From Parcubacteria group bacterium (lineage in GTDB: Bacteria; Patescibacteriota; Minisyncoccia; 2-02-FULL-40-12): a stretch of 64,000 nt of DNA. This document shows positions 83-55,114 of this stretch, one piece after another. The stretch spans positions 148,022 to 212,021 of the forward strand of contig JACPLU010000003.1 of NCBI GenBank assembly GCA_016186395.1, read 5' to 3'. The stretch's first letter is position 1. Each line of letters opens with the position of its first letter. The translations under genes and the position numbers were made by a program. Below the pieces are notes generated by a model. It did no database searches, was not told where the DNA came from, and worked only from the letters and a program-made list of their open reading frames with translations.

Positions 83-278
83 GTGAATAATACTCTTTCT
101 CTTTCTTCGCAAACCCCAGCGTGGTTTACTCAGGGGTTGAGCCCTTCGCTCTTTCTCTGTCTGGACTAGTAAATCCAGACAGAGAAAACCATGCCCGTCC
201 CGATTTCTGCTCCGCAGAATCGAGGATCCTCGATAGCATCGGGACTACGGGCTCAAAACCCGTTCAAGAGTATTATTC
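83..278 (+). mobile_element. MITE-like element copy 1. It has 16-bp TIRs (GGTGAATAATACTCTT / AAGAGTATTATTCACC family) and two central hairpins.
   Basis: The conserved left arm (TCTCTTTCTTCGCAAACCCCAGCGTGGTTTACTCAGGGGTTGAGCCCTTCGCTC) and right arm (GGGCTCAAAACCCGTTCAAGAGTATTATTC) match those of four other copies in the window. The central hairpin is ctctgtctgga...tccagacagag. Confidence 0.75.
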
Positions 279-287
279 CGTTAAGAG

Positions 288-1367
288 TCATTTAAACCAC
301 TTCCTTATTTCTTCGGGTTTAATTTTTGCTCTTTTCATAATTTCCTTTCTTTTTTGAAGCATTTCAGGAATCAATTTTAGAAGTTTGGGTATTTCTAATA
401 ACACTTGGGGTTCAAAAAGAATTGTGTACCCAAGGATTAAAATTTCTCTTTTTAAAACATACGGAAGGTCTTTCAGAATATTTATAAAAAAATCGTTTTT
501 CATAATAGTTAATCTCATGTTACGCCAATCAAGACGGCGTTTGTGGATAGGAATTTGTTTTCGTATCTTTAATCTTTTAAAATAATCAATCCAATCTTTT
601 TTAATTCCTTTTGTAGTAGATCGGTCGTGCCACAACAAGGCTTTTGGTATCAGATATTGTTCCCAGCCAAAAATTCTCATACGCCAAACAAGGTCCAAGT
701 CATCTACATACCAGAAATAGTTCTCATCGGATAATTCACAAAAGGTCTGATTTTGAAAATTATATTTATAATCACAGAGTCTGCTTTGTTCTAGCGCTTT
801 ACGTCTGAATACTACGCAAGCTCCTTCTACCCCAAAAATTTCTTCTGGTTTGTCATATTGTCCGATATCTTTCTCTCCGTGCCCTTTATTGATTAAACGT
901 CTGGATTTATAGATTTGGAAACCGACCGTATCAATTAAATCGGTTTTTATCGCTTGCCCATTTTTATCTATATTCCATTGCATAATTTTTCCCTGAACTG
1001 CGCCAACTTTCTGATTTTTATCCATAGCCTCAATAGTTTCTTTTAGAAAATTTTTATCCAAAATTATGTCTACGCTTAGAAAAACTGCATATTCTGTGTT
1101 TGTTAACGAAAGAGACCTTGAAAATGCTGGCCAAGCGCCAAAGTTTTCCGGAGATTTATAAAGTCGGAATTTCGGATATTCGTTTTCAATGATAGCTTTA
1201 GTTTGATCATTTGAGTTGTTATCAAAAATTATAACCCCAAAATCTTTAAAGGTTTGAGCTTTTAAAGAGTCTAAACAATGGCGAATATATTTTTCGCCAT
1301 TACGAACAATAAGATGGATGGTTACTCTTGACATATTTGTTAAATAGATGATAACATAAAGCGGCAA
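288..1367 (-). CDS. Glycosyltransferase family 2
   Basis: The N-terminus has a GT-A fold signature: IVRNGEKYIRHCLDSLKAQTFKDFGVIIFDNNSNDQT, with a DxD-like motif. Confidence 0.8.
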   Translation of the reverse strand: MPLYVIIYLTNMSRVTIHLIVRNGEKYIRHCLDSLKAQTFKDFGVIIFDNNSNDQTKAIIENEYPKFRLYKSPENFGAWPAFSRSLSLTNTEYAVFLSVDIILDKNFLKETIEAMDKNQKVGAVQGKIMQWNIDKNGQAIKTDLIDTVGFQIYKSRRLINKGHGEKDIGQYDKPEEIFGVEGACVVFRRKALEQSRLCDYKYNFQNQTFCELSDENYFWYVDDLDLVWRMRIFGWEQYLIPKALLWHDRSTTKGIKKDWIDYFKRLKIRKQIPIHKRRLDWRNMRLTIMKNDFFINILKDLPYVLKREILILGYTILFEPQVLLEIPKLLKLIPEMLQKRKEIMKRAKIKPEEIRKWFK

Positions 1368-1394
1368 ATTAACAAATTTTTAGGAGAGGACTTT

Positions 1395-1625
1395 ATGCCA
1401 TCAGCAGACGATTTTCAACCCTACGTAGAATCTCCAAAATTAATAAAAATAAATGATATAGCCGATGTGAAACTAAAGTATATTCCGGTACCAGTTAGGG
1501 CAAAAGTGATTGGTTTTTATGAAGGAGAACCTATTTTTGAAAGAGTTGATTCAAGTGGCAAGCACGTTCCCTACCCCCGAATTCATCAGGACGCTTATGA
1601 CTATTATCTAAAAGTAGAGGCTTGA
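1395..1625 (+). CDS. Hypothetical small protein (76 aa)
   Basis: ORF only. It is tightly linked to the next small ORF through a stop/start overlap (TGAAATG). Confidence 0.3.
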   Translation: MPSADDFQPYVESPKLIKINDIADVKLKYIPVPVRAKVIGFYEGEPIFERVDSSGKHVPYPRIHQDAYDYYLKVEA

Positions 1626-1626
1626 A

Positions 1627-1935
1627 ATGGCCACAAAGAAAATAACTGATGCAGAATTTGACGAGAATGTGATAAGGATTGTCTCACTTTACGAGATCAA
1701 GATTTTTATGTCAGATCGGTTTCCCCACGTGCTGATATTGCATGGCTTATTATTTACAGATCAGGAATTGCTAGCGTCGCTGGATAGATTATTAGCTAAA
1801 GTTTTTATTCAAAAACCGTTAAAACCGATAGATATTGATATGTTTCGTAATTCACCAATACCCGTTATTTTTAACGATGAAAAAGTAAAGGATTTTCTTT
1901 TAGATTCTGAATTCGTGACTGCCGAAAGAGATTAA
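1627..1935 (+). CDS. Hypothetical small protein (102 aa)
   Basis: ORF only, translationally coupled to the upstream ORF. Confidence 0.3.
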   Translation: MATKKITDAEFDENVIRIVSLYEIKIFMSDRFPHVLILHGLLFTDQELLASLDRLLAKVFIQKPLKPIDIDMFRNSPIPVIFNDEKVKDFLLDSEFVTAERD

Positions 1936-1948
1936 AAGGAGGAGAAAA

Positions 1949-3523
1949 TTAGTTTACAGAGTCGGGATCAATCCCGCTCTTTTTGTTTAAAATCGCAAGG
2001 TTTAAAGTAACCATTGAGGTAAACATCAAGAAAGAGCGTTCATCAGTTAATGCGGCGTCAGTGAGACTGTAAAGTAAAACCCAAACGTAAGAAATTAAGA
2101 AATAAAAATGGGTACTCGTTTGTATAGAATTTTTTAGTTTCTGCGTCTGTTTTAAATAAGTATAGATTTTTCTAAATATTAACCAAAAAAGCCACATAAA
2201 AAGTAAACCGCCTATGATTCCAATTTCAGCTAAAAAATTTAAATAAAGGTTATGAGCTGAAGAACCAGCCTTAGCAAGTTCGATCTTTTGATTTAAAACA
2301 ACCGGAAAATTCCCTATTCCGACACCCAATAAGGGGTGTTTTTTAATTGATTCAAGTGTGGCTTTCCAGATTAAAATTCGACCGCTGTTTGAAAGTTCGG
2401 ACGCATCTAAAAGAGATTTAATTCTTGTGTTAATAAGATCAAGTCCGCCGTGAACCTTAAATTGGGCCGTTGAAAAAATAAAATAAGTTAAACCGAAAGC
2501 AATCAAAAAGATTATAATTAATTTCCCGCCTAATTTTGCGTATTCTTTATACCCTTTTACCCAATAGTAAATCGTTAAGAGGATTGGCCCCAAAAATGCA
2601 AGCCAAATGCCACGGGTACCGGTGAGGACTATAGCTAGTAGGAATACGAAACATAAAACTTGAAACATTAAACTTGAAACATGGGACACAGAATTTTTTA
2701 TGGTATTTTTTATGTAAAACAAACCCGGAAGGGTCATAATTAGAAACATTGGGAAGCTATGAGAATCTGGAAATGATGAAAACATTCTTAAAACTAGTTT
2801 CTCGCCAAAATACGCGAACCAAGTGTTTGCATTCAATGCCGTTTTTCCCCATTCAAAACCATATAAGTTAGTGTCTATTTTTAAAGCCCAAAACTTTAAA
2901 AAACTATCCGGATCCATAAAATAAGTCATACCTAACTGGATAAAACCGATCATAACTGCAATAGCCCCGGCTATTAAAGACACCTTTAAAATTTTTTCAT
3001 AAAACAACTTTCCCCTTTTTACTTCAAAGTAAATTACTGTGGGTATGATTAAAATATTAGCGAAGTAAATTATTCTTTTTATAGCTGCAAATTTGTCTGG
3101 AGCAACAAAAACAGAAAGTACACAAATGATAAATAGTAGAATTATTAGGGAAGAGATTTTGTGTTCTCTAAAGAATAAAACGGGTTTTTTAAAGACTAGA
3201 ACTAGTTGATTAAAGAAATTTAATATTATATATCTTTGGAAAAACCATTTTAAAAAGATTAAACCGGCTATAATACGCCATATATTAAAGTTGTCAAAGT
3301 TTGGGGTTATGGGTAAGGCGATAAATAACGGAATGGATTGAATAAAAAGGGTTATTAGGTTGCCAAAGTGGTGTTTAAAAATGAAAATAACCCAGAATAA
3401 AAGCAACAAAAAAGCCCAGTGGCGATCAAGTATGCCAAGGGCGACAAGGGGTACTATAATGAGTTCAATCAAAAAAATGGTCTTGGAACTAATATATCTA
3501 AGCATTTGATTTTCCACATGCAC
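1949..3523 (-). CDS. O-antigen ligase / polymerase-like polytopic membrane protein (Wzy_C-like)
   Basis: It has many transmembrane helices and a motif resembling the Wzy_C periplasmic loop (TGTRGIWLAFLGPILL). It sits inside a glycosyltransferase cluster. Confidence 0.55.
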   Translation of the reverse strand: MHVENQMLRYISSKTIFLIELIIVPLVALGILDRHWAFLLLLFWVIFIFKHHFGNLITLFIQSIPLFIALPITPNFDNFNIWRIIAGLIFLKWFFQRYIILNFFNQLVLVFKKPVLFFREHKISSLIILLFIICVLSVFVAPDKFAAIKRIIYFANILIIPTVIYFEVKRGKLFYEKILKVSLIAGAIAVMIGFIQLGMTYFMDPDSFLKFWALKIDTNLYGFEWGKTALNANTWFAYFGEKLVLRMFSSFPDSHSFPMFLIMTLPGLFYIKNTIKNSVSHVSSLMFQVLCFVFLLAIVLTGTRGIWLAFLGPILLTIYYWVKGYKEYAKLGGKLIIIFLIAFGLTYFIFSTAQFKVHGGLDLINTRIKSLLDASELSNSGRILIWKATLESIKKHPLLGVGIGNFPVVLNQKIELAKAGSSAHNLYLNFLAEIGIIGGLLFMWLFWLIFRKIYTYLKQTQKLKNSIQTSTHFYFLISYVWVLLYSLTDAALTDERSFLMFTSMVTLNLAILNKKSGIDPDSVN

Positions 3524-5257: not shown

Positions 5258-6232
5258 TTATTCTATTTTCCCGAATCTATTTTTGTAAAAGTCAATCACC
5301 CCATTAAGTATAGCTAGCGATTCTTTTTTGTTTCTGCCAATTAAAATTTTCAAGGTTTGTTTAAAGATTACCCAAAGACTCCAGGGCCACAAAAGAATCT
5401 TTACCAATATTGGGCCATGTTTTTTATTAAAATAAAGGGCATTTCGGAAGTGATAACGTAAAAGTAGTGGAGAGCCAAGCTTTGAGGTAGAAGATGAAAC
5501 TTTATGCTTTATTTTAGCATCTTCAGCTACTTTGATTTTAAATCCTGCCTTTTGTGCATGTAAGCAAAAATCGGCGTCCTCAAAATATAAAAAATATTCA
5601 TTTGGTAACACTATTTTTTCAAAAACCTCTTTTTTGACTAGCATTGCGGCTCCGGGAATATAGAGATCTTGGGACTTGGATCTTGAGTCGTGAATCATGG
5701 ACTCAGGGTTTGTATTTTGTTCTCCGTGTTCCATATTCCACGTTCCATGTTTCAACTCTGATTTGAGCCATTGGATTCTTCCGCCTTCTACTATCCACCT
5801 ATCGTTATTTTGTGCGTATTCTTCTATAATAGGTCCGACTATGGCAACGTTATTTGATTCAATGGTATGAATTAGTCTTTCAATTGTATTTTTCTCAACC
5901 GCCGCATCATTATTTAGAACAAAAATGTAGTCAGCGTTATTTTCTAGAGCCTTAAGGATTCCAACATTATTTCCCCCGGCATAACCTAGGTTTTTTAGAT
6001 TTTGTATGAACTCTAACCTTGAACTATAGTGATTAGCTTGTTTTTGATAATTTTCAATAAATAACCTTAACTGTTTTGGGGACTCGTCTGTAGAGCCGTT
6101 ATCAATTACCATAATATCCAGATTAAAATTATCTGTTTTTGATTTTAATACCGATTCTATACAGTTAATCGTGTCTGGAAAGTCATTCCAGTTAAGAATA
6201 ATTACGGATGTTTTTTTGAGTAGATTTGGCAT
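5258..6232 (-). CDS. Glycosyltransferase family 2, carrying an in-frame CATG-element insertion
   Basis: The N-terminus (VIILNWNDFPDTINCIESVL ... DNGSTDES) is GT2-like. The low-complexity segment HGTWNMEHGEQNTNPESMIHDSR is encoded by a CATG-rich repeat. Confidence 0.8.
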   Translation of the reverse strand: MPNLLKKTSVIILNWNDFPDTINCIESVLKSKTDNFNLDIMVIDNGSTDESPKQLRLFIENYQKQANHYSSRLEFIQNLKNLGYAGGNNVGILKALENNADYIFVLNNDAAVEKNTIERLIHTIESNNVAIVGPIIEEYAQNNDRWIVEGGRIQWLKSELKHGTWNMEHGEQNTNPESMIHDSRSKSQDLYIPGAAMLVKKEVFEKIVLPNEYFLYFEDADFCLHAQKAGFKIKVAEDAKIKHKVSSSTSKLGSPLLLRYHFRNALYFNKKHGPILVKILLWPWSLWVIFKQTLKILIGRNKKESLAILNGVIDFYKNRFGKIE

Positions 6233-6234
6233 AT

Positions 6235-7389
6235 TTAAATTTTAGATTCGATAAAATCTAAAATTTGCTTTTTAAATCTTTCTTCTGAAAACTTTTCTGC
6301 ATGTTTTTTTAGCACAAGCGGGCTGTAGTAGCCTGTTTTTATTTTTTCATAGATTCTTCTGGCCCCATCCGCCAAAACTATTGGATTGGGATCATCAAAA
6401 AATTCACCGGTTACTCCTTCAATTATACTTTCTTTTGCTCCTCCACGGCGTAATGCTAATATCGGTTTACCATGACTCATAGATTCAACAGGCGTTATGC
6501 CAAAATCTTCTTCTTGGGGCATAACAAATGCGATTGAGTTTTGATACAAGGTTTGTAATTCTTGGTCATTTACAAAACCGGTAAAAAAGATATTTTTTGC
6601 ATCCAATCTTTTAGTCAAGCTTTTTAAAGAAGTTTTTTCTGGTCCCCGGCCAACAATAATCAACGGCCATTGAAGTTTGGCAAATGCTCGTATAGCAATA
6701 TCAATATTTTTATGTTTAAAAAGCTGGGAAACAATGAGAAAATAATCGGAAGAAACCCTTGAATCTTGAACCTTAAATCTTGGATCACTTTGGTCATGAT
6801 TCATGTTCCATGTTTCATGGTTTATGTTTACCGGAGGATAAATTACAGTGGTTTCTTGCCGGTAGTATTTCCTAATCCTTTGAGCGACATTTTTGGAGTT
6901 AGCTATAAAATAGTCAACCCTTGCGGAGGCAGCCTTATCCCAAATTCTAGCAAAGTGTTGGAACAAAGTTACGCCGACATATTTTAGTGGTCCTCTTTTT
7001 TTAAACTCTTGGTTGTATTCTGATGACCAATCCCAGAGCCAACGGGTTGGACTGTGGCAATAACAAATATGGCGCGTATGGGGTTTTAAAATAACTCCTT
7101 TGCTAAATGCGATGTTAGAAGAAATGACTAAATCATATGAATCAAATCTGAAAGCTTCGGCGGCCAAGGGCATTAAAAATGGTAAGTAAGGGTAGATTTT
7201 TAAAATAAATGGTATTTTTTGAAGAATTGAGGGAACTATTTTTGCATTAGGCAAATATTTTTTAGTGAATTCTTTCGAATAAACCAGGGTATATATGGGT
7301 GCTTCGGGGAAAATTTTATGTAAGGCAATGATAACGCGCTCGGCGCCGCCAAGATTTAAAAGCCAGTCATGTATTAGTGCTACTTTCAA
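6235..7389 (-). CDS. Glycosyltransferase family 1 (GT4-like), carrying an in-frame CATG-element insertion; apparent TTG start
   Basis: MKVALIHDWLLNLGGAERV is a GT4 N-terminus. The segment HETWNMNHDQSDPRFKVQDSR parallels the insert in the neighbouring GT2 gene. Confidence 0.8.
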   Translation of the reverse strand: MKVALIHDWLLNLGGAERVIIALHKIFPEAPIYTLVYSKEFTKKYLPNAKIVPSILQKIPFILKIYPYLPFLMPLAAEAFRFDSYDLVISSNIAFSKGVILKPHTRHICYCHSPTRWLWDWSSEYNQEFKKRGPLKYVGVTLFQHFARIWDKAASARVDYFIANSKNVAQRIRKYYRQETTVIYPPVNINHETWNMNHDQSDPRFKVQDSRVSSDYFLIVSQLFKHKNIDIAIRAFAKLQWPLIIVGRGPEKTSLKSLTKRLDAKNIFFTGFVNDQELQTLYQNSIAFVMPQEEDFGITPVESMSHGKPILALRRGGAKESIIEGVTGEFFDDPNPIVLADGARRIYEKIKTGYYSPLVLKKHAEKFSEERFKKQILDFIESKI

Positions 7390-7473
7390 AACTCAAAATT
7401 TAAAAGTTGGAAGTCAAAATTTTTATTTTTGACTTGAATTTTTGAATTTTACTTTTTGCCTTTTGATTTAATT

Positions 7474-8481
7474 CTATCGTCTGGTCATCACATTCCTTTT
7501 ATAGAGTTCTAAGTTATCCAAGACAGCACCGGTGCCTTTTGCAACACAAACTAGTGGGTCGTCAGCAATTCTTGCCGGAACTCCAGTAACTCGCGTTATA
7601 AGAATATCCATATTTTTAAGCATGCCACCCCCCCCAGAGATAACAATACCTCTTTCCATAACGTCTGCGCAAAGTTCTGGTGGAGTATCTTGAAGAACGT
7701 TTTTAATAGTTTGAATAATTTCTCTTAGTTGTTCCTGAATTGCTTCTATAATTTCATTTGTAGTAACATCTATGGTTTTAGGAAATCCAGTTGCTAAGTC
7801 TCTTCCTCTTACAGATACAGTTTCTTCATTGTTTTGTCTTACAGCCGAACCAATTGCTATTTTAATTCCCTCGGCGCTTCTTTCCCCTACGGCTAGATTG
7901 TGTTTTTTCTTCATATGTTCAGCTATGGCTTGGTCCATTTTGTTACCTCCTATTCTCACTGAAGAGGAAGTAACAATTCCTCCTAAGCTAATAATAGCAA
8001 CTTCTGTTGTTCCCCCACCAATATTTACAATCATATTTCCATAAGCGGAATTTATTGGGATTCCTGCTCCTATTGCAGCAAGGACAGGTTCTTTTACTAA
8101 ATAAACCGCCTTTGCCCCAGCACTGATTCCAGCTTCAATTACTGCCCTTCTTTCTGTAGAAGTTATTCCGGCTGGTACGGAAATCATAACTTCTGGTTTC
8201 CCGAATTTAATTTTTCCAACTGCCCGTTCAATAAAATATTTAAGCATTGCTTGAGTAATTCTATAGTCCGCAATGACCCCATCTTTAAGAGGTCTAGAAA
8301 CAACAATGCTTTCCGGAGCACGACCGATCATTTCTTTTGCTTGAGCTCCCACTGCCAGAATTTTATTATCTAATATTGATATCGCAACTACGGTCGGTTC
8401 GCGTACCACAATGCCTCGCTTTGGTACAAAAACGAGTGTATTTGTTGTTCCAAGGTCTATACCAACTTTTTTTATAAACAC
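7474..8481 (-). CDS. mreB: Rod shape-determining protein MreB (GTG start)
   Basis: The N-terminus (GIDLGTTNTLVFV) is the actin-fold phosphate-1 motif, and similarity to MreB runs the full length. Confidence 0.9.
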   Translation of the reverse strand: MFIKKVGIDLGTTNTLVFVPKRGIVVREPTVVAISILDNKILAVGAQAKEMIGRAPESIVVSRPLKDGVIADYRITQAMLKYFIERAVGKIKFGKPEVMISVPAGITSTERRAVIEAGISAGAKAVYLVKEPVLAAIGAGIPINSAYGNMIVNIGGGTTEVAIISLGGIVTSSSVRIGGNKMDQAIAEHMKKKHNLAVGERSAEGIKIAIGSAVRQNNEETVSVRGRDLATGFPKTIDVTTNEIIEAIQEQLREIIQTIKNVLQDTPPELCADVMERGIVISGGGGMLKNMDILITRVTGVPARIADDPLVCVAKGTGAVLDNLELYKRNVMTRR

Positions 8482-8849
8482 GTAGGAAAGTTAAAATTTA
8501 AAATGCAAAATTCAAAATTTAAAACTTGGAATTTACATAGTAAATTTTATCCGTACTTTTGCTTTTTACTTTTTGCCGCCTTTGGTCCAGCCTCGCCTCT
8601 CGCTTACGGCGGGGCTAGTCTTAGACGGCCGGCGGGAGTTTTAATTTATCAATCTAGCAGTTTATTATAAACCTCTCAAGTCCAGCACCACTTTTTTGAA
8701 AAAAGTGGTGCTGGGCAAGCCCCGCACCCCCGCCTGCCGGACGGGCAGGGAGTCCAGCACTGGTTTTCTGTACCCCCATACCTTTTGTTTTACAAAATGT
8801 GTGGGACTGTTCTGGATCTGGTGACGGGGACAAACAAACTAGTTTGGTA

Positions 8850-9003
8850 AAAATAATACTCTTGAACGGGTTTTGAGCCCGTAGCGGGCATGGTTTATCC
8901 CGCCCCAGTTTATTTAAATAAACTGGGGCGGGATAAGAGCGAAGGGCTCAACCTCTGAGCAAACCACGCTGGGGTTTGCGAAGGAAGAGAAAGAGTGTTA
9001 TTT
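8850..9003 (-). mobile_element. MITE-like element copy 2 (reverse orientation)
   Basis: It is the reverse complement of the conserved arms. Its central hairpin (cccgccccagtttatttaaataaactggggcggg) is nearly identical to that of copy 3. Confidence 0.75.
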
Positions 9004-9059
9004 ACCAAACCAACAGACTGATTCTAGCCAAAGACAAAGTTTTATGGTAGTATGAAAAA

Positions 9060-10088
9060 ATGCATAGAATTTCAAGAAGAATAATTTTTTGGATAGCAGT
9101 AGTATTATTTTTATTTGGGAGCTATACGATTATTAAATATGCTCAAGGTTACAGATTTGAAATTCAGGAAATGAGTTTTATAAAAACCGGGGCAATTTTA
9201 CTAAAGACTTTTCCTAAAAAAAGTGAAGTTTTTATTAATCAAAAATTTGTTGATACAACCTCATTAATCAGTGGAGAGTTTACAAAACGTTTTTTGTTGC
9301 CGGATACATACAGTGTTGAGATTAAAAAGAGTGGAAAACAATTATGGCGTAAACAAATTCAGGTTAAAGCGTCAGAAGTGTCTCAATTTTTAAGTATTTA
9401 TTTACCTCCAGAATCTTTAGATTTTAAAAAATCAGATTCGACTGAAGAATATCTGACGAAATCCGTTTCTTTAAACTTTATCACGGAAAGATATTCATTC
9501 AACTCTAGAGATAGAAGGATATATCATTTAAAGGAAAATGGTCAATTAGAAGATATTGAATTGGATGTCCAAAAGGTTATAGATTTTTCAGCGTTACCAT
9601 TTTCTTCTCAATATAGATTTTGGGAGGTTGGTTTTGGTAAGAACAATTTAACCTTTGTTATTTCAAAAGTATCTGCGAAATCAGAAAGTGGTGTCTTGTT
9701 TGTGTTGGAAAATGGTGTGTGGAAACTAATAAATGGTAATGTAAGATCGGTATTTTTATCTAGAGATCAAAAGAAAATTGCAATACTTGGTAAAAATGAA
9801 ATTCTAATTTATTGGTTTGAGGACGAGTTGATACCACCAAATTACTATAAAGGTCAGTTAGAGTTAATAGTTAGGAGATCAGATTCGGTTTCAAAACTTT
9901 TTTGGTTTGATGATGAACATTTACTTTTTCTGTCTGGAGGGAATGTTTTACTTACGGAGGTTGATACAAGGGGTACTAGAAATACCTACGAGTTAGCAAA
10001 AGGGGTAGATGATTTTTTTTACGATCGAGATGGTAACTTGTTAGTTATCAAAAAAGACGGCGAAACATTAATGACTAATTTTGATTAA
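9060..10088 (+). CDS. Hypothetical membrane-anchored protein (342 aa)
   Basis: It has an N-terminal transmembrane helix and no recognisable catalytic motif. Confidence 0.4.
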   Translation: MHRISRRIIFWIAVVLFLFGSYTIIKYAQGYRFEIQEMSFIKTGAILLKTFPKKSEVFINQKFVDTTSLISGEFTKRFLLPDTYSVEIKKSGKQLWRKQIQVKASEVSQFLSIYLPPESLDFKKSDSTEEYLTKSVSLNFITERYSFNSRDRRIYHLKENGQLEDIELDVQKVIDFSALPFSSQYRFWEVGFGKNNLTFVISKVSAKSESGVLFVLENGVWKLINGNVRSVFLSRDQKKIAILGKNEILIYWFEDELIPPNYYKGQLELIVRRSDSVSKLFWFDDEHLLFLSGGNVLLTEVDTRGTRNTYELAKGVDDFFYDRDGNLLVIKKDGETLMTNFD

Positions 10089-10720: not shown

Positions 10721-11063
10721 TTTTATAAATTTCTAAGTTTTTAATAATTTTTGACCTAAGTCTGTTTTTAGGCAACATGGCTAAAACTGTTTGTTTAACT
10801 AATTTTCTTGAGTCCTTTTTTACGACTTTCTCTAGACTTTCTGCCTTAATTCCACCTGGGTATCCAGTGTATCTGTAGTAGATTTTATTTTTTAGTTTTT
10901 TACCAGTAAATTTTAGTTTATCAGTGTTAACAACTATTACTTTTGTTTGAGGTAGTATATTGTATTCAAAAGAAGGTTTATTTTTGTCGCGTAAAAGTAT
11001 AGCAATTTGAGTTGCTAATCTTCCTAATACTTGATTTGTGGCATCTATTTTAACTTCGGTCAT
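10695..11063 (-). CDS. rplM: 50S ribosomal protein L13
   Basis: GRLATQIAILLRDKNKPSF...YYRYTGYPGGIK matches L13. The ATG at 11063 is preferred over the TTG start in the ORF track. Confidence 0.85.
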   Translation of the reverse strand: MTEVKIDATNQVLGRLATQIAILLRDKNKPSFEYNILPQTKVIVVNTDKLKFTGKKLKNKIYYRYTGYPGGIKAESLEKVVKKDSRKLVKQTVLAMLPKNRLRSKIIKNLEIYKNDSKKTNN

Positions 11064-11165
11064 GCGCGATACCAATATACTAACGCATACTAATTATACT
11101 CATAAGATTCGTCGCGTCAGACGCGATTCGTATCATTAGTATCAATTCGTATATTTGAATCGAAT
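11064..11165. repeat. Alpha-operon intergenic structured repeat, copy a
   Basis: It shares about 95 nt with copies b and c: GATACCAATATACTAA(C/T)(G/A)CATACTAATTATACTCATAAGATTCGTCGCGTCAGACGCGATTCGTATCATTAGTATCAATTCGTATATTTG. Confidence 0.8.
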
Positions 11166-11513: not shown

Positions 11514-11615
11514 ATGCGCGATACCAATATACTAATACATACTAATTATACTCATAAGATTCGTCGCGTCAGACGCGATTCGTATCATTAGTATCAATTC
11601 GTATATTTGAATCGG
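11514..11615. repeat. Alpha-operon intergenic structured repeat, copy b
   Basis: Nearly identical to copy a. It fills the entire rpoA-rplQ gap. Confidence 0.8.
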
Positions 11616-12386: not shown

Positions 12387-12389
12387 AAA

Positions 12390-12490
12390 ATAGTGATACC
12401 AATATACTAATGCATACTAATTATACTTATAAGATTCGTCGCGTCAGACGCGGTTCGTATCATTAGTATCAATTCGTATATTTGCATCGG
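12390..12490. repeat. Alpha-operon intergenic structured repeat, copy c
   Basis: It matches copies a and b with a few substitutions. It fills the rpsD-rpoA gap. Confidence 0.8.
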
Positions 12491-13126: not shown

Positions 13127-13332
13127 GCGAATTATGTCTACAAGCGTAGCGCGTAGCTACAGAATTCAGCACCCAGCTCCACTTTTACCATTTCAACATA
13201 AGCTTACTACTATAAAGACTACATAAGGCTATTTAGCCCGGCAATTTAAAGCTTTAAATTGCCGTTATTCAAATAGTAAAAGTGGGGCTGGGTAACTTTT
13301 TGTAGCTCCTCGACAAGCTCGGAGACAAAAAA

Positions 13333-14162: not shown

Positions 14163-14235
14163 AATAAAATTAAAATTTAAAAATCAGAGGTCAAAATTAA
14201 TTTTGCTTTTTGATTTTTGAATTATGCATTACTTT

Positions 14236-14349
14236 TTAGCCTTGTCTTTGTTTGTGCTTTTTATTTTCACATATACAATAAAGTCGTCCTTTTCTACGCA
14301 CGATTTTGCACTTATTGCATATTTTTTTAACTGATGCACGTACTTTCAC
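14236..14349 (-). CDS. rpmJ: 50S ribosomal protein L36 (37 aa, GTG start); missed by the 60-aa ORF cutoff
   Basis: Manual minus-strand translation gives (M)[36 protein letters not shown]. This is the canonical L36 zinc-ribbon sequence, in the expected position between infA and rpsM. Confidence 0.75.
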
Positions 14350-32236: not shown

Positions 32237-32647
32237 ATGGGATTTTTTATCAAACTATTATTATTTTTAGGCGTTATTGCCGGCATCTATTCATTTTTTG
32301 GCGGCAATACTTTTTCTAATCTAAAAGGGAAAATTATAGAAGTGGTTAGTCCCCCGTCACCTAGAGAAAAACTCGTTAGCAATTTGAGTAATAACTTTAA
32401 TAATTTAGAAGCTCTTATAAACAAATTGGGGTCTGACAGTATTTCTGTCCAAGAAAAGTTCAGTCTTAGCGGTGAGGCTCAAAAACTCGTTCATCAAACA
32501 GAGGATCTGGTTTCTGACCTAAACAATCTTGCTAAAAGTTCTGATAACGGAATATTTAAGACTGTTCTAAATAAAGTTTTGCCACAAACACAAAGTCCTA
32601 CACCCACTAGCGGTTTACAAGTTCAGTGTATTGAGCCTGGTGAATAA
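32237..32647 (+). CDS. Hypothetical secreted protein (136 aa). Its last codons and stop lie within the left TIR of MITE copy 4.
   Basis: N-terminal hydrophobic helix. The ORF ends ...PGE-TAA inside GGTGAATAA. Confidence 0.35.
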   Translation: MGFFIKLLLFLGVIAGIYSFFGGNTFSNLKGKIIEVVSPPSPREKLVSNLSNNFNNLEALINKLGSDSISVQEKFSLSGEAQKLVHQTEDLVSDLNNLAKSSDNGIFKTVLNKVLPQTQSPTPTSGLQVQCIEPGE

Positions 32648-32784
32648 TACTCTTTCTCTTTCTTCGCAAACCCCAGCGTGATTTGCTCAGGGGTTGAGCC
32701 CTTCGCTCTTCCCAAGCTCTTTCTAAAGAGCTTGGAAAACCATGCCCGCTACGGGCTCAAAACCCGTTCAAGAGTATTATTCAC
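32639..32784 (+). mobile_element. MITE-like element copy 4
   Basis: Perfect 16-bp TIRs (GGTGAATAATACTCTT / AAGAGTATTATTCACC). The central hairpin is ccaagctctttctaaagagcttgg. Confidence 0.8.
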
Positions 32785-32986
32785 CAAGTTAAAAGATTTA
32801 ATCGTTTAGTTTGAAAATAATTTAAATACATGTTACGGTGTGGGGATGAATCCCGTAGTGAAAATTCGAATAGATTTACATATGCTAAGTCACTATGGGG
32901 TTTAAGAGATACAATATAAAAGGAGTTTGGATAGTGTTATATAGATTCTAAAAATCATAAAGCATTATTCGAATTTCTACTACGGG

Positions 32987-33229
32987 ATGAAGTCATCCAT
33001 ACACCCAAAATACTATCCGGAATCTTCAGTAAAGTGTGTTTGTGGTAACACGTTTAAAGTTGGCTCGACAAAGTCAAATCTTGAGATAGAAATTTGCTCT
33101 AATTGCCATCCTTTCTATACGGGTCATGAAAAAGTTTTAGATACCCGAGGAAGAGTAGAAAGGTTCAAAAAACGTCTTGAAAAGAAACAAACTCTTGTTT
33201 CAAAGAAAGGTCTCAAGAAGAAAAAGTAA
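32987..33229 (+). CDS. rpmE: 50S ribosomal protein L31
   Basis: MKSSIHPKYYPESSVKCVCGNTFKVGSTKSNLEIEICSNCHPFYTG is the L31 zinc ribbon. Confidence 0.85.
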   Translation: MKSSIHPKYYPESSVKCVCGNTFKVGSTKSNLEIEICSNCHPFYTGHEKVLDTRGRVERFKKRLEKKQTLVSKKGLKKKK

Positions 33230-35376: not shown

Positions 35377-35439
35377 AGAGCCTAGCTTACCATAAGTTTA
35401 GTAAACTGAAAAGCCTCCTATATACGGAGGCTTTAAGGC

Positions 35440-45972: not shown

Positions 45973-46323
45973 ATGATCAAACAAAACTTTCATCAAAATC
46001 TCAGGGATAAAATAAATACTTATATTCATTTAGTGTACAAAGTAACTAAAGAATTTCCTCGTGAGGAAACATACGGAGTGACGTCCCAACTAAGGAGGTC
46101 TGCACTTTCGGTTATGTTAAACTATATCGAGGGATACGCAAGATTTAAAACCAAAGTTCATAAGAACTTTTTAGAGATTGCTTACGGCTCACTTCAGGAG
46201 TCTAAATATATTCTTGAATTTTCGCTCGAAGAAGAATTTATGAAAAAAGATAAATATATAAAATTAGCCCACTTAGCAGATGAAATCGGAGTTATGTTGT
46301 GGGGAATTATTACTAAATTATGA
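45973..46323 (+). CDS. Four-helix-bundle protein
   Basis: YKVTKEFPREETYGVTSQLRRSALSVMLNYIEGYAR is characteristic of the family named after 23S rRNA intervening-sequence proteins. Confidence 0.7.
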   Translation: MIKQNFHQNLRDKINTYIHLVYKVTKEFPREETYGVTSQLRRSALSVMLNYIEGYARFKTKVHKNFLEIAYGSLQESKYILEFSLEEEFMKKDKYIKLAHLADEIGVMLWGIITKL

Positions 46324-49478: not shown

Positions 49479-49635
49479 CTAATCCTCCCTAAAACAAATT
49501 TGTTCGGACGAACATACGCCCTGGGCGTATGTTTTAGCCCTAACTACGATGGATTAAATAAGTAAAATGGTATAAAGAACTTACGTGTCTGTCAACACAA
49601 ACAAAAACTCCGTTTAAACGGGGTTTTTGTTTTAA

Positions 49636-52341
49636 TCAGTTCCTGATTGTTTCTTTAACTTGAACCTTAAATTCCTTATCGAAGTCAAGATATAAAATAG
49701 AGCCTTTCTCGGGTTCTTTGCCTAAAATTATTTCTGAAATTCTATTTTCTACGTTTTTTTGTATTACTCTTCTTAATTCTCTTGCTCCAAAATGAGGATC
49801 GTATCCGTCTTTTGCTAACTGATCTACTGCTTTTCTGCTGACTTCCAATTCTAAACCGCCGCTTTTTAATTTTCGGCGCAATTTGTCTAATTGTAAACTA
49901 ACTATTAATCGAATCTCATCTTCGCCCAAAGCTTTAAAAACAATAATTTCGTCAATACGATTTAGAAATTCTGGCCGAAATATGGATTTCAAGTTATTAA
50001 TCAAAGTGCTTTTCATACTTTCATAACTTACCCTATCTTCTTCTGGTTTATCAGCTTCTCGATAAATAATATCTGATCCGGCATTTGATGTAGCAATGAT
50101 AATTGTGTTAGTAAAATCTATCACTCTGCCCTGCCCGTCTGTTAATCGTCCATCTTCTAACACTTGAAGTAATGAGTTAAATACATCTGGATGGGCTTTT
50201 TCGATTTCGTCTAAAAGTATGATGGAATGAGGTCTGCGCCTGACAGCTTCTGTTAGTTGACCGCCTTCTTCAAAACCCACATATCCTGGTGGCGCACCAA
50301 TTAGACGAGAAACATTGTGTTTTTCCATATATTCGGACATATCAAGACGAACTATTGAACCCTCGTTGCTAAACATTATTTGAGCCAATGTACGGGTTAG
50401 TTCAGTCTTGCCAACTCCAGTAGGTCCAAGAAATAAAAATGAAGCAATAGGACGATTAATATCTCCCATTCCTGCGCGGCCGCGTCTTATTGCGTTAGCG
50501 ACTGCCTTTACCGCTTCTTCTTGGCCAATGAGTCTTTCGTGAATTCTTTCCTCCAGCTTTAGAAGTTTTTCTTTTTCTTCTTGGGTAAGTTCAGTTATTG
50601 GTATTCCAGTAAGTTTTGAAATAATTTCAGCTATGTTGGCTGTAGTAACTTCAGGAGTTAATTTAGCTTTCTTAGCTTCCCATTCTTCAAATAATTTATC
50701 CCTTTGAATTTTTAATTCAGTAATTTCTTTTTGTAGTTGAGCAACCCTTTTTGTTTGTTTTGAACGTTTTGAAGCATCCAATTCTTTTTCTAAATTTTTA
50801 ACCTGTGACTCTAAATTTTTAATTTCTTCAGGTTCATTGGTAAACTGAATTCTTACTCTTGCCGCTGCTTGGTCAATTAAGTCTATGGCTTTATCCGGTA
50901 AGAAACGATTAGAAATATAACGATGCGATAATTCTGCTGCTGCGATTAATGCCTCGTCAGAAATTTTAACCCTATGGTGGGATTCATATCTGTCTCTTAG
51001 GCCTCGCAAAATTTCAGCAGTTTCTTTAACTGACGGTTCTCCTACAAATACCGGCTGAAAACGGCGTTCCAATGCCGCATCTTTTTCAATATATTTTTGA
51101 TACTCTTTGAGTGTAGTCGCTCCAACCACATGAAGCTCGCCTCTTGCAAGAGCCGGTTTAAACATATTAGCCGCATCCATGACTGTTCCTTCGGCGCGGC
51201 CAGCCCCAACAAGAAGATGGATTTCGTCAATAAAGACGACTAATTTATCAGAATTTTCTCTTATCTCATCGACTATTCCTTTTAATCTTTCTTCAAATTG
51301 GCCTCTATATTGTGTGCCGGCAAGAATACCAGACAAATCAAGTTCAACAACTCGTTTACCTTGAAGTGGTTCTGGAACGTTTCCTGAAACAATTCTTTGG
51401 GCTAAACCTTCAACAATAGCCGTTTTACCAACACCAGGTTCACCAATTAATACAGGATTATTTTTAGTTCTACGGGCTAGAATTTCAATAATAGTTTCAA
51501 TTTCTTTTGCCCTGCCGATAACCGGATCAAGCTTGCCTTGGGCCGCTACTTTACTTAAATCTCTAGAAAATTGATCCAAATTTGGCGTGTTCATCATTGG
51601 TACAAAACCTTCTTTTGAACCGCGTCCAACTGTTTTCACGATTGCTTTTTGTAAAACCTCTTGACTAAGTTTTAGTCTTTTAAGTATTTGAGCGGCTAAA
51701 CCCTCTCCTTCTTCCATTAAAGCGAGAAGTAAGTGTTCTGGGCCAACATAGGTGTGTCTTAGATTTTGGGCAATTGGCAAAGCAATATCTAAAGCTCTTT
51801 TTAATCTCGGTGAATACTCAACTTGATAGGGCTCTTCATAACCTGTTTTAATTGATGATTTAACATCCATCTCCAGATTTTTAATATTTACTTTGGCCTG
51901 TTCTAATATTTTTTGTACGTTTGGTTCGTCAAGAAGTGCCAAAAGCAGGTGCTCTGTATCAACTTGATCATTTCTAAACCGACCAGCCAATCCAACCGCA
52001 CGTTGCAATGCCATTTGTCCTGATTCTGAAATATAGCTTTCAGTATCAACCCGTTCTTGAGTTTGCGGTTCTTGATTATTAAACATTTCCCCAAATAAAT
52101 CACCAAGTAAATCATCACCAAATATTCCACCTAATCCAAAGGGTGATTTATGGCTTTTATTTTTATCACTTTTTCTTGATTGATTAGGACCTGGTAAATT
52201 AAAGCTTATGCCTTTTGAAGCACAATTATCACAAAGATTCAGAGTTGAAGCTCTGCCGTTTATAATTCTTGTGATTTTTCTTGTTGCTTGATTTTTTTTG
52301 CAGTTATCGCATAGGGACATGGAACATGGAACACGAAGCAT
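49636..52341 (-). CDS. ClpC/ClpB-family double-ring AAA+ chaperone with an N-terminal ClpX-type C4 zinc finger
   Basis: There are two Clp N-domain repeats. NBD1 has GEPGVGKTAIVEGLA and NBD2 has GPTGVGKTELT and GYVGFEEGG. The N-terminus LCDNCKKNQATRKITRIINGRASTLNLCDNCASKG is ClpX-ZBD-like. Confidence 0.8.
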   Translation of the reverse strand: MLRVPCSMSLCDNCKKNQATRKITRIINGRASTLNLCDNCASKGISFNLPGPNQSRKSDKNKSHKSPFGLGGIFGDDLLGDLFGEMFNNQEPQTQERVDTESYISESGQMALQRAVGLAGRFRNDQVDTEHLLLALLDEPNVQKILEQAKVNIKNLEMDVKSSIKTGYEEPYQVEYSPRLKRALDIALPIAQNLRHTYVGPEHLLLALMEEGEGLAAQILKRLKLSQEVLQKAIVKTVGRGSKEGFVPMMNTPNLDQFSRDLSKVAAQGKLDPVIGRAKEIETIIEILARRTKNNPVLIGEPGVGKTAIVEGLAQRIVSGNVPEPLQGKRVVELDLSGILAGTQYRGQFEERLKGIVDEIRENSDKLVVFIDEIHLLVGAGRAEGTVMDAANMFKPALARGELHVVGATTLKEYQKYIEKDAALERRFQPVFVGEPSVKETAEILRGLRDRYESHHRVKISDEALIAAAELSHRYISNRFLPDKAIDLIDQAAARVRIQFTNEPEEIKNLESQVKNLEKELDASKRSKQTKRVAQLQKEITELKIQRDKLFEEWEAKKAKLTPEVTTANIAEIISKLTGIPITELTQEEKEKLLKLEERIHERLIGQEEAVKAVANAIRRGRAGMGDINRPIASFLFLGPTGVGKTELTRTLAQIMFSNEGSIVRLDMSEYMEKHNVSRLIGAPPGYVGFEEGGQLTEAVRRRPHSIILLDEIEKAHPDVFNSLLQVLEDGRLTDGQGRVIDFTNTIIIATSNAGSDIIYREADKPEEDRVSYESMKSTLINNLKSIFRPEFLNRIDEIIVFKALGEDEIRLIVSLQLDKLRRKLKSGGLELEVSRKAVDQLAKDGYDPHFGARELRRVIQKNVENRISEIILGKEPEKGSILYLDFDKEFKVQVKETIRN

Positions 52342-52393
52342 GAAACATAAAGTTGGATTTTAGGACTCACGATTCATGTTTTTACAAAAGTGT

Positions 52394-52422
52394 ATTATAG
52401 CAGAATTTCAAAAAAAAATCAA
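52394..52422 (-). promoter_or_regulatory. Sigma70-like promoter (TTGATT -17- TATAAT) for the Clp gene
   Basis: The minus strand reads TTGATTtttttttgaaattctgcTATAAT about 45 nt upstream of the CATG-rich leader and start codon. Confidence 0.5.
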
Positions 52423-52443
52423 AAAGCGGCCGAAAGACCGTTT

Positions 52444-53409
52444 TTAATATTTAACTGTAGTTATATATTTCTCATTTAAATCTTCATATTCACTTTTGCC
52501 CGTGATTAAATCGTCGTACTTTTCCATAAGTAATCTTGTAATCGGGCCAGGCTGATCGTCTCCTACTTTAAGAGTTGGTTTGGAAGTATTAAATTCATAA
52601 TCTTCAAAAAACGATATTTTTGTAATCGGTGTTACTTTTGTAGAGGTGCCCGTTAGAAAAAGTTCCCCGGCCGATCTTAGGTCAGAATCAGTCATTATTC
52701 CGGAATCATTTAATTTGATCCCGTTTTTTTTAGCCAGATTAATAATCGAATCTCTTGTAACCCCGGCAATTATCGGGAGACTTAATGATGGAGTGTAAAG
52801 TTGGCCGTTCCACACACCAAAAATATTCGCAAACGCAGATTCAAGAACTACGCCAGTGTGAGTTTTAAATAAAACAGTTGTAAAACCTTTTTGTATAGCA
52901 TTATTGTGAAGTATTGCTGGAACCGAATACTCGCCAGTAAGTTTTACCCTTCCAAAAACAGGATCTCTGGTATAGGGCACTATTGCTACTTTGGCAGGCA
53001 TTTTAAGAGGAATGTATTCTCGCATTTTATGAATACTTATTATAAGAGATGTTTGCTCATTTGAGTAATCGACAGCTTGCGGATGGCATGTAAAACAAAC
53101 TAAACGCATATCTATATATTGCGGACAAAGAAATTTATTGGCTTCCACAGTCTGAACAGCCATTCTTTTTATAGAATTAAAGGTTTCATTAGTTTTTAGA
53201 CAGCAAGTTCTCGCATTTTTGAGTAAGCGCTCAATATGTTGATCCAGCCTAAAAATTAAAGCTTTATTAGTATTCGCGTCGTAGAAAGCGTAAACGGCAT
53301 CAAATATACTAACACCTCTTAAAAATGAACTATTCAATAAGTGGTTTGTGTTTACTAACGGAGTTAAAAAATCATTTGAACAGATTATATGGCCAGTGTC
53401 CTTGTCCAT
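52444..53409 (-). CDS. Class IV aminotransferase (branched-chain / D-amino-acid aminotransferase family)
   Basis: SIFDAVYAFYD...RLDQHIERLLKNA and the C-terminal E...LTGTSTKVTPI match the fold-type IV PLP enzyme pattern. Confidence 0.65.
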   Translation of the reverse strand: MDKDTGHIICSNDFLTPLVNTNHLLNSSFLRGVSIFDAVYAFYDANTNKALIFRLDQHIERLLKNARTCCLKTNETFNSIKRMAVQTVEANKFLCPQYIDMRLVCFTCHPQAVDYSNEQTSLIISIHKMREYIPLKMPAKVAIVPYTRDPVFGRVKLTGEYSVPAILHNNAIQKGFTTVLFKTHTGVVLESAFANIFGVWNGQLYTPSLSLPIIAGVTRDSIINLAKKNGIKLNDSGIMTDSDLRSAGELFLTGTSTKVTPITKISFFEDYEFNTSKPTLKVGDDQPGPITRLLMEKYDDLITGKSEYEDLNEKYITTVKY

Positions 53410-53512
53410 TCCATCTTCCTGTATTGAAAAAGAGCTTAATTTAGACTAAATCAAATAGAAAATAATTTCAATAATAAATGGAGGTCGAAAAGTCAGCATT
53501 ATCCCAGAGAAT

Positions 53513-54190
53513 CTAGAGTATATCGTGGATATCCATTCCGGCCCACGCGCAAAATTCACAAGCCTGGTGTTTTGGAGGCAATGGTCCTTGTAAAAGCATA
53601 GACGCTTCATAAAATAGCTTTTTAGCGTCTTCTTTTGAGGTTTCAATTCTTTTAGGAACAATATCAAATTTAATAGTACTGTTATCTAAAATATCGGTTG
53701 GAGCAAAAAATACTAAATATCCAATATCTTTAGTTGGATAACCGTTTTCATCCAAAAGCCAAGTATATAAATTAAGCTGGTTTTGATGAAATATATGTGA
53801 GTCTTCTTTAATACTGGCTTTGGATTTGTAGTCTAATGGTATGAAAAAGTTATCATCTGTTATCAAGCAGTCATCCAGGGCGCTTACTAGTTGAACGTTT
53901 AATTCTTTATCAACATAGCTTGGTCCTGTTTTCCAAAAACGCCATTTTTTTAGCAATTCAAAGTTGTCGAAAAGTTGACCCTCAACAAGGCCTTCAAGTT
54001 GGGGTGGAAGTTTTCCCTCTGCTCGGAAACGATCAAAATATTCTTTTACCAGCAAATCCATCTTTGTATAAAGAGGCATTGGTATTCCTTGGGGCCTTTT
54101 AATATGTTCTTTTACTTGTAAATAAAAACAGCGTGGGCAGTCTTTGTATAGGGATAATGATGTAGCAGAAAGTGTAAGCAGACTTTTCAT
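53513..54190 (-). CDS. PD-(D/E)xK family nuclease (Cas4/RecB-like) with N- and C-terminal cysteine pairs
   Basis: DCPRCF near the N-terminus, the core IPLDYKSK (D...D/ExK), and the C-terminus CEFCAW. Confidence 0.5.
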   Translation of the reverse strand: MKSLLTLSATSLSLYKDCPRCFYLQVKEHIKRPQGIPMPLYTKMDLLVKEYFDRFRAEGKLPPQLEGLVEGQLFDNFELLKKWRFWKTGPSYVDKELNVQLVSALDDCLITDDNFFIPLDYKSKASIKEDSHIFHQNQLNLYTWLLDENGYPTKDIGYLVFFAPTDILDNSTIKFDIVPKRIETSKEDAKKLFYEASMLLQGPLPPKHQACEFCAWAGMDIHDIL

Positions 54191-54957
54191 TTTTTAATCA
54201 AGGATATTAAGAAAAAAACAATACTGGTTAAAACAACAATTGGGCCCGGAGGTAAGGAATACTGAAATGCGATCCAGACTCCCAGCCCAGTACTTAATGT
54301 TCCTATAACCATACTCCAAAAGCCGAAAGAACGAAAATTAGGACTGATATTTTTAGAAGTTGCCGCGGGAATTATAACCAGGGCACCCATTAAAAGACTA
54401 CCAACAACTTTTATTCCAAGCGCTACGATTATCGAAACAAGCATTAGAAAAATAAGATTAATCTTTGAAATATTAATGCCAGAGGCTTTGGCAAATTCTT
54501 CGGAAACGGTTCCTAAAATTAACTGTTTTGCAATGCGTCTCATTATAATCGTTACAATAACAGCAAGCACAATAGCCAAAATTGCATCTATTGGTTTAGT
54601 TTTTGAAATATCGCCAAACAAGGCTTCAAAAAGTTCTGGTTCCGGAGTAATTAAAATACCGATGGCTAAACTTGCAGTAAACATTATGCCAACCAGAGTT
54701 TCTACGGCTAGTTTAGTTTTTTGTTCCAATCGCCAAATAATTAGTGCCGCAACAAATAAAAATACAAACGCACCGATAAAAGGATTTATGTTAAGCAAAA
54801 AAGCAATACCAATACCAGGTAGAGCCACATGGGTTAAGGCATCACCTACTAGAGCCATTCTTTTTAGGATCATAAATGAACCTAAATATCCGGCTGCGGT
54901 GCCAGTAAATAAACCCACTATAAGACTTAGTTGAAAAGTTGAATCAAAATAACTCAT
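54187..54957 (-). CDS. Metal (Zn/Mn) ABC transporter permease, ABC-3 family (ZnuB-like)
   Basis: Eight transmembrane helices and the ABC-3 conserved region. Confidence 0.8.
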   Translation of the reverse strand: MSYFDSTFQLSLIVGLFTGTAAGYLGSFMILKRMALVGDALTHVALPGIGIAFLLNINPFIGAFVFLFVAALIIWRLEQKTKLAVETLVGIMFTASLAIGILITPEPELFEALFGDISKTKPIDAILAIVLAVIVTIIMRRIAKQLILGTVSEEFAKASGINISKINLIFLMLVSIIVALGIKVVGSLLMGALVIIPAATSKNISPNFRSFGFWSMVIGTLSTGLGVWIAFQYSLPPGPIVVLTSIVFFLISLIKK

Positions 54958-54964
54958 TTAACAA

Positions 54965-55114
54965 GGTGAATAATACTCTTTCTCTTTCTTCGCAAACCCC
55001 AACGTGGTTTGCTCAGGGATTGAGCCCTTCGCTCTTCCACCATCTGATTTAAAACCAGATGGTGAAAACCATGCCCACTACGGGCTCAAAACCCGTTCAA
55101 AAGTATTATTCACC
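54965..55114 (+). mobile_element. MITE-like element copy 5, inserted between znuC-like and znuB-like genes of the same operon
   Basis: Perfect TIRs GGTGAATAATACTCTT / AAAAGTATTATTCACC. The central hairpin is caccatctgatttaaaaccagatggtg. Confidence 0.8.

Follow-up and report, generated by a model that had tools for sequence, protein, structure and literature searches.

How can a small repeat keep nearly the same sequence in its arms while its centre differs among copies and stays perfectly paired? The question is raised by a non-coding repeat in a 64-kb stretch of contig JACPLU010000003.1, hereafter the window, from a groundwater Parcubacteria genome of the candidate phyla radiation (CPR), a short-read metagenome-assembled genome (MAG). 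The repeat is present in five full-length copies of 146–198 nt, distributed over both strands. [quoted passage not shown] Its arms would be constrained in sequence and its apical hairpin, the tip, only in pairing, and one strand would probably act as a single strand.

The preliminary description of this DNA had listed five dispersed, non-coding, MITE-like copies bounded by terminal inverted repeats (TIRs), and probes, nhmmer and self-BLAST confirmed all five in place. A probe of 37 nt for the left arm and one of 29 nt for the right arm each matched the five listed places and no others at three or fewer mismatches, with a chance expectation of 0. With nhmmer, the profile of each arm recovered all five copies at full length (E 1e-13 to 1e-26), and isolated or decayed arms were absent from the window; the self-BLAST of the window agreed. 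Arm probes, profiles and Pfam annotation place copy 1 (83..280, + strand) about 10 nt downstream of the stop of a GT2 glycosyltransferase gene (288-1367, −). Copy 2 (8848..9005, −) is inverted and occupies part of the intergenic stretch that separates the divergently oriented mreB (7474-8481, −) and an open reading frame (ORF, 9060-10088, +). Copy 3 (23480..23635, +) is located between an RHS-repeat ORF (17824-23469, +), starting 11 nt past its stop, and the ORF 23664-24905 (+). The left end of copy 4 (32639..32785, +) supplies the last codons, Gly and Glu, and the TAA stop of ORF 32237-32647, with the gene of ribosomal protein L31 downstream. Copy 5 (54965..55114, +) occupies the whole 162-nt spacer between the genes of an ABC-3 permease (54187-54957, −) and an ABC ATPase (55120-55881, −). 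The last three settings, after the RHS gene, over a stop codon and between transporter genes, are as first described. The orientation relative to neighbouring transcription is mixed: copies 1, 5 and probably 2 are sense, copies 3 and 4 antisense.

Each unit consists of a left arm of 69 nt from the 13-bp core TIR (75 nt including a variable outer end), a variable centre and a right arm of 46–53 nt. The core TIR, GAATAATACTCTT / AAGAGTATTATTC, is perfect in copies 1, 3 and 4. Copies 2 and 5 have one mismatch, in one arm each, and nine of the ten ends are within one mismatch. The core sequence was found nowhere else in the window. The repeat extends to 17 bp in copy 4, to 15 bp in copy 3 and, with one mismatch, to 16 bp in copy 5; it is interrupted in copies 1 and 2. 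Perfect 16-bp TIRs had been claimed for the family. The TIRs are present, but the repeat common to the copies is the 13-bp core, and a length of 16–17 bp is confined to copies 4 and 5.

The central hairpins were located by a scan for perfect hairpins. Copy 1 has a 14-bp stem with an 8-nt loop at 152-187 (TTTCTCTGTCTGGA / TCCAGACAGAGAAA). Copy 2 has a 21-bp stem at 8895-8936, a 42-nt perfect palindrome in which TTATCCCGCCCCAGTTTATTT is followed directly by AAATAAACTGGGGCGGGATAA, and copy 3 has a 20-bp stem of the same type at 23549-23589. The stems are shorter in copy 4 (11 bp, 32712-32735; CCAAGCTCTTT / AAAGAGCTTGG) and copy 5 (9 bp, 55038-55064; CACCATCTG / CAGATGGTG); on the reverse strand, the latter is extended by one G·U pair plus A-U pairs. 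A perfect stem is thus present in all five copies as proposed, but not a different one in each: copies 2 and 3 share a type without being identical, which leaves four tip types over five copies. The tips of copies 2 and 3 differ by one compensated pair (T:A vs C:G, the C:G in copy 3) and by a loop that is one base shorter in copy 3. The arm/tip junctions (after …GCTCTT and before AAACC…) are the same in every copy, and no copy with an empty centre is present among the five. The four types cannot be aligned with one another by identity, which is not significant. When aligned from the stem base, the left halves of all four share a purine/pyrimidine pattern, YYYYYRYYY (shuffle p 0.03–0.05). This is a weak hint that the types may represent one hairpin diverged by compensated transitions. 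The second hairpin noted earlier in copy 1 proved to be a nested structured insert of 47 nt (198-244), with an outer stem TCCCGAT/ATCGGGA around two small hairpins. It interrupts the right-arm hairpin GCCCG-CTA-CGGGC precisely within the loop.

Copies 2 and 3 share their tip at different loci. The tip is therefore inherited on transposition; it is neither made anew each time nor taken from the target. Divergence between the two copies is alike in tip and arms (2/37 nt vs 8/115), so this tip was inherited normally and not remade with each move. These observations do not support the earlier suggestion of a regenerated hairpin, in that the hairpin is not formed again at every transposition. The consensus arms are the same whichever tip a copy carries.

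The preliminary description had proposed a comparison of orthologous loci in relatives, and this revealed presence/absence differences, with empty sites for two of the five loci. At the site of copy 5, the loci L004 and L005 of a relative, with a permease 93% identical, lack the element: the ATPase stop abuts the permease start (…TTTTAA/ATGGAG…). The window reads …TTCTAA-AGTTTGGTG…[element]…CACCTTGT-TAA-ATGAGT…, with TAA(A) on both flanks. At the site of copy 4, locus L010 of a relative has the same gene order, including the downstream L31 gene, and neither element nor hairpin. Its 134-aa orthologue is 80% identical to the 136-aa window protein and ends in MDK*, in contrast to IEPGE* in the window, where the last codons and the stop are located inside copy 4. 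With proteins 93% and 80% identical, the relatives are different species and not strains. The empty sites indicate that the elements at these two loci were inserted, hairpins included. An origin of the hairpins from the target was rejected, as the empty sites have no such hairpin.

A T/A-rich target-site duplication of 3–4 bp is likely, and is clear at one copy, copy 5. The flanking trinucleotides of copies 1 to 4 are similar and not identical (TGA/TAA, TGA/TAA, CGA/TTA and TTG/TAG). A weak TRAG-like pattern, 4–7 nt outside GGTG, is common to both ends, and no fixed tetranucleotide flanks the five copies. Downstream of copy 5, the permease N-terminus differs from that of the relative (MSYFDSTFQLS vs MENTYFQLS; window 54955-54990 vs L004 1545-1580). 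A short TTTTSAWYCAAC-like duplication suggests that the start region may have been locally remodelled after the coupled TAA/ATG junction was split.

Independent assemblies bear on the junctions. Logan contigs of five runs (SRR12113420, -22, -24, -30 and -31) carry the flanking genes and stop exactly 31 nt inside the element at copies 4 and 5. As 31 nt is the Logan k-mer length, these breaks fit a genuine multi-copy repeat. The protein running into copy 4 is identical in three independent samples. The Logan contigs never cross an element interior, so this second witness covers the junctions only.

The predicted fold has the same branched stem-loop architecture in all five copies. The paired TIRs form helix P1 (13–17 bp). 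P2 is an 11-bp helix (GGGTTGAGCCC / GGGCTCA(AA)ACCC) and P4 a 7-bp side hairpin (GCAAACC / GGTTTGC). The base of the variable apical hairpin, P3, includes the TT that ends the left arm and the AA with which the right arm begins. The small GCCCG-CTA-CGGGC hairpin is an alternative that competes with P2. The ends of the element pair with each other and not with themselves, and, measured inwards from the end of the 13-bp core TIR, the nearest self-hairpin starts at 24 nt. On the strand complementary to the orientation of the preliminary description, hereafter the reverse strand, the predicted folding energy is 6–15 kcal/mol lower in all five copies. A role of the central hairpins as intrinsic terminators was rejected, since no T-run is located 3' of them on either strand in any of the five copies. 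The small GCCCG hairpin has a weak hairpin plus T-run score on the reverse strand.

The substitutions distinguish the two strands. The arms are ~98% identical to their consensus, with 2.4% of positions differing. Over 115 arm positions, 14 substitutions relative to the majority consensus were counted; all are singletons, which indicates a star phylogeny. All 14 are transitions, in the forward orientation nine G>A, two C>T, two T>C and one A>G. With 22 G and 34 C in each copy, the excess of G>A over C>T reaches significance (Fisher p=0.008). Stem pairing was counted for each strand on arms-only alignments. On the forward strand, 96.1% of the stem cells pair and all six single-sided changes break a pair. 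On the reverse strand, these six changes are G·U wobbles (6/6, binomial p=0.03) and 100% of the stem cells pair. Two arm pairs show compensated double changes, G:C to A:U in the outer TIR pair of copy 2 and C:G to U:A in P2 of copy 3; the tips of copies 2 and 3 provide the third. This one-sided wobble signature points to a role of the reverse strand in single-stranded form, and the earlier idea of a functional single-stranded fold gains support from it.

The central stems, 138–150 nt in total, have no unpaired position, compared with 3.4–3.7 expected at the arm rate (p about 0.03). Set beside arms with 2.4% differing positions, this upholds the initial view that conserved arms around a variable, paired centre are not the outcome of simple decay. 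The perfection of the tips slightly exceeds the prediction from the arm rate. This leaves room for hairpin-templated copying or repair or for a recent replacement by small palindromic modules, as suggested by the insert in copy 1.

A second repeat family in the same genome offers a parallel. Three copies in the same orientation (11062-11162, 11514-11614 and 12389-12489) occupy consecutive spacers of the L13/L17/RpoA/S4 operon. They are 95–101 nt long, 96–98% identical and unrelated to the first family, and they fold into a long stem-loop with the central palindrome CGCGTC-T-GACGCG. Beyond the window, ~1.1 kb past its right end, Logan contig L011 terminates in a fourth copy (5958-6093). This copy matches the others at 17/17 and 20/21 flanking positions. 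Three compensated pair swaps plus a single wobble separate its 13-nt central hairpin, TGAGCTTAGCTCG, from theirs, with the length unchanged, and the copy also holds a structured insert of ~44 nt. This similar behaviour, in a comparison of four copies, indicates that conserved arms, a variable paired centre and nested inserts are a property of the small repeats of this genome and not of one family.

Searches for further copies and for a mobilising enzyme gave negative results. The two-arm gapped pattern and single-arm 23–27-mers common to all five copies had no match in GTDB genomes, IMG/VR and JGI metagenomes. Concatenated six-frame peptides of the element matched none of 5.8 billion proteins, and a blastn search of the element against plasmids and phages found nothing. 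Rfam had no match for the element at gathering thresholds across the whole window, and permissive scans yielded chance matches to miRNA-like hairpins only. Pfam detected no transposase, Y1/HUH, RAYT-like or reverse-transcriptase domain in the 50 scanned window ORFs of at least 100 aa, and the window contains no cognate autonomous insertion sequence (IS) with the same TIRs. Two derivations from an IS were rejected: independent deletion derivatives, as every copy has identical junctions and a palindromic centre, and abutted IS ends as in a circle junction, as the centres differ among the copies.

The simplest mechanism compatible with these observations would start with a transposase or another protein that acts in trans and reads the arms sequence-specifically. 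Lineages that actively transpose would then keep consensus arms. The gene of a cognate transposase would be bounded by GGTGAATAATACTCTT. The apex may need only to be a perfect hairpin. If a stable hairpin suffices, the tip could drift fast through compensated changes, changes in length and the addition of hairpins; the insert in copy 1 would be an example of a further hairpin added into a loop. The effective folded form would be the single reverse strand, either as single-stranded DNA or as a transcript.

Several points weigh against this element model. A cognate transposase or an autonomous element is missing from the window, where the TIR is restricted to the five copies. The outer 4–10 nt of the ends vary among copies, which makes the exact termini uncertain, and the target-site duplication is clear only at copy 5. 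Normally, only the TIRs matter in MITEs; a sequence constraint over ~115 nt of arm is unusual for a MITE. Strand-specific cytosine deamination could produce the strand asymmetry without selection on the fold, and selection acting on host mRNAs is a second possible source. With five of the six wobble changes, the neighbouring transcript would be expected to contain the wobble strand too, and only the change in copy 4 discriminates; on its own, this change argues for a strand intrinsic to the element. The data hint only weakly at homology among the four tip types, and unrelated modules may instead have replaced one another. There may also be an ascertainment effect, as a short-read assembler may favour copies whose unique centres it can bridge. 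With five copies, every statistic is marginal (p 0.008–0.03).

Alternatively, the tips could be separate, tiny palindromic modules that insert into or replace apex loops, with the MITE as their preferred landing site. The second, independent insert in copy 1 sits exactly in the loop of another hairpin and itself resembles a hairpin with others nested in it, and the ~44-nt insert in the fourth copy of the second family is of a similar kind. Tip types that cannot be aligned by identity and yet join the same consensus arms at the same junctions also fit modules. Such modules should occur elsewhere, but the tip modules H1–H5 were found neither in the rest of the 64-kb window nor in 12 fetched loci (~35 kb); H2 occurs twice, both times inside the element. 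The lack of an empty-centre copy, the purine/pyrimidine pattern shared by the left halves (p about 0.03–0.05) and the compensated point changes at constant length in the second family, which represent divergence and not insertion, speak against insertion as well, and modules of this kind are regarded as unlikely. Somewhat more doubtful is a self-correcting, fast-evolving palindrome at the apex, in which a process at the DNA level rewrites the tip and keeps its pairing perfect. Hairpin-templated copying or repair and the loop-targeted insertion of tiny palindromic units are candidate processes, and strand-specific cytosine deamination may feed them. If true, this would be a new kind of hypervariable cassette within otherwise frozen mobile elements, with at least two unrelated families affected and possibly also further intergenic RNAs of the genome that bear hairpins.

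The modular structured RNA considered in the preliminary description would be recruited by the host as an mRNA stabiliser, a processing site or a small-RNA scaffold, selected in host transcripts, with the tip as a free expansion segment. Wobble-only changes and compensated pairs on one strand would suit an RNA, as would copies at gene ends and within an operon and the weak hairpin plus T-run motif on the favoured strand, which for copies 1, 5 and probably 2 is the strand of the adjacent transcript. However, copies 3 and 4 are antisense to their flanking genes, and the wobble change of copy 4 lies on the non-transcribed strand. A conserved RNA would not be expected to be absent from orthologous sites of relatives and without anything similar in the scanned collections. 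The missing Rfam family, even at permissive thresholds, and the lack of a T-run after the central hairpin add to this, so that a host RNA appears improbable. An equally low probability is assigned to a REPIN- or PATE-like element whose single-stranded DNA form is mobilised by an IS200/IS605- or RAYT-type HUH (Y1) transposase. Strand-specific conservation of folding agrees with it, and strand-biased C>T changes would suit an exposed single strand. REPINs also have conserved ends and a less conserved spacer in which common compensatory changes keep the pairing (PMC3116915). The IS200/IS605 origin proposed earlier is nevertheless not supported, given true TIRs in place of self-folding REP or subterminal hairpins, with the first hairpin 24 nt in from the core TIR end. 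There is no GTAG-type head and no fixed tetranucleotide common to the flanks; the TAA(A) duplication at copy 5 is not made by the IS200/IS605-type family; and no Y1_Tnp or RAYT-like domain was among the scanned window ORFs. Least probable by far, and almost negligible, is an assembly artefact, that is, palindromic centres or copy-specific variants created by an assembler while resolving a collapsed repeat. The source is a short-read MAG, and the interiors are without a second witness, as the independent assemblies never traverse the element. But the arms (48–75 nt) are shorter than typical short reads, for which the read length is assumed, so reads from flank to centre can place every centre. 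A fold-back error would give an arm and its reverse complement, not two different arms around a novel palindrome. Identical boundaries at five places, copy-specific compensated changes, which are an unexpected mode of error, and the identical junction protein of copy 4 in three independent samples are further arguments against an artefact.

The element is a MITE or foldback repeat with a REPIN-like logic, notable for its host, its density, its location in essential operons and the contrast of frozen arms with a free, paired tip. Like the bacterial foldback repeats Correia, ERIC/IRU, RUP and Nezha, it is ~150 bp long, non-coding, multi-copy and bounded by TIRs, and the whole unit forms a long stem-loop. 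Such repeats also lie between genes or within operons, can supply stop codons and are present or absent between relatives. The element differs from them in arms that are near-identical over their full length while the apex wholly differs among copies and stays perfectly paired, in strand-asymmetric, wobble-only substitutions, in the lack of a known partner IS and in its ultra-small CPR host. The window holds ~78 copies/Mb of this family and ~125/Mb with the second family added. This is comparable to the highest densities in a survey of 183,232 genomes, where Wolbachia, with 123/Mb, was among the densest (PMC11602168). A literature search found no description of MITEs in CPR.

REPINs are doublets of REP sequences that form hairpins, and the critical property of their spacer is the ability to pair (Bertels and Rainey 2011, PMC3116915). 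The conserved ends at the hairpin base, the less conserved spacer and evidence for a single-stranded folded form are shared. A RAYT recognises the ends of a REPIN, a pair of inverted REP palindromes, and a classical TIR with a duplication is lacking. The present element has plain TIRs, one site with a 3–4-bp duplication and arms that are not mirror images owing to the side hairpin P4, and its tips differ far more than REPIN spacers. BOX elements and BIMEs also have a modular, variable middle between conserved ends, but what changes there is how many of a few fixed modules occur or in which order, not the sequence of one always-perfect hairpin. The small dispersed repeats (SDRs) of 21–27 nt that Elhai et al. 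reportedly described in 2008 inside Nostoc minitransposons are also said to be very short hairpin units in MITEs with further hairpins nested, and the inserts in copy 1 and in the second family look similar. A single 21–27-nt SDR sequence reportedly recurs in many contexts, whereas the modules here were seen only in the element and three of the four central types once.

CPR genomes (~1 Mb) are regarded as streamlined, and a repeat density rivalling that of Wolbachia is unexpected. The repeats sit in essential operons for ribosomal proteins and a metal ABC transporter and rewrite gene ends, for which no description in CPR was found either. A single 150-bp element is split into a sequence-constrained part and a part in which only pairing counts, with a wobble signature on one strand. 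It offers a compact natural test case for the question whether single-stranded DNA or RNA is the acting form of small bacterial repeats, and for how perfect palindromes are maintained. The Logan contigs that stop 31 nt inside the element illustrate that such repeats break short-read assemblies and hence contribute to the fragmentation of CPR MAGs.

The window has a G+C content of ~35% and carries housekeeping genes. Pfam annotations comprise MreB, ribosomal proteins, RpoA, AlaRS, a truncated release factor and ClpB, as well as pentose-phosphate enzymes, glycosyltransferases, the RHS protein and the metal ABC transporter. The best homologues of the ABC-3 permease beside copy 5 belong to named Parcubacteria/Paceibacteria lineages. 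The product of ORF 32237-32647 is 100% identical to the MAG hypothetical protein HYW77_01865 [Parcubacteria group bacterium]. The gene at 17824-23469 (+) encodes an RHS/Kelch-repeat protein of 1881 aa. It is followed by copy 3 and then by the 413-aa ORF 23664-24905 (+), whose translation begins like a signal peptide and includes a DHLGSTR motif similar to the RHS core. ORF 45973-46323 (+) matches PF05635, the 23S rRNA intervening-sequence protein, and weakly a bAvd-like protein. The bAvd-like proteins are a four-helix-bundle family that includes accessory proteins of diversity-generating retroelements; no reverse transcriptase was among the scanned window ORFs.

Other intergenic features were observed. 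Three AT-rich segments of ~75 nt each (7387-7460, 8506-8577 and 14166-14243), with a mutual identity of 73–74%, are located directly 5' of the starts of − strand genes for a glycosyltransferase, mreB and rpsM. A promoter or leader common to these genes is the probable explanation. Two G+C-rich blocks (8560-8830 and 58950-59160) stand out in long intergenic regions of a genome with 35% G+C. Within each there is a perfect hairpin with an AT tip (8682-8714 with a 16-bp stem and 59023-59069 with a 19-bp stem), and at the end of each a hairpin precedes GGTTTTCTG on the + strand. Rfam had no match for either block, and Logan contig L011 starts within the second, at window position 59134. The blocks may be small RNAs of no described family or a further type of element. 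Unique perfect hairpins in short intergenic gaps at gene ends (13239-13264, 35410-35434 and 49511-49533) resemble the element tips in their GC-rich base and AT-rich top and have no arm sequences nearby. One example, AAAGCCTCC-TATATAC-GGAGGCTTT, looks like a bidirectional terminator. The non-coding region 32788-32990, 5' of the L31 gene, is ~80% conserved in the relative (L010 511-702), in which the neighbouring protein is likewise only 80% identical. This region may be a conserved leader.

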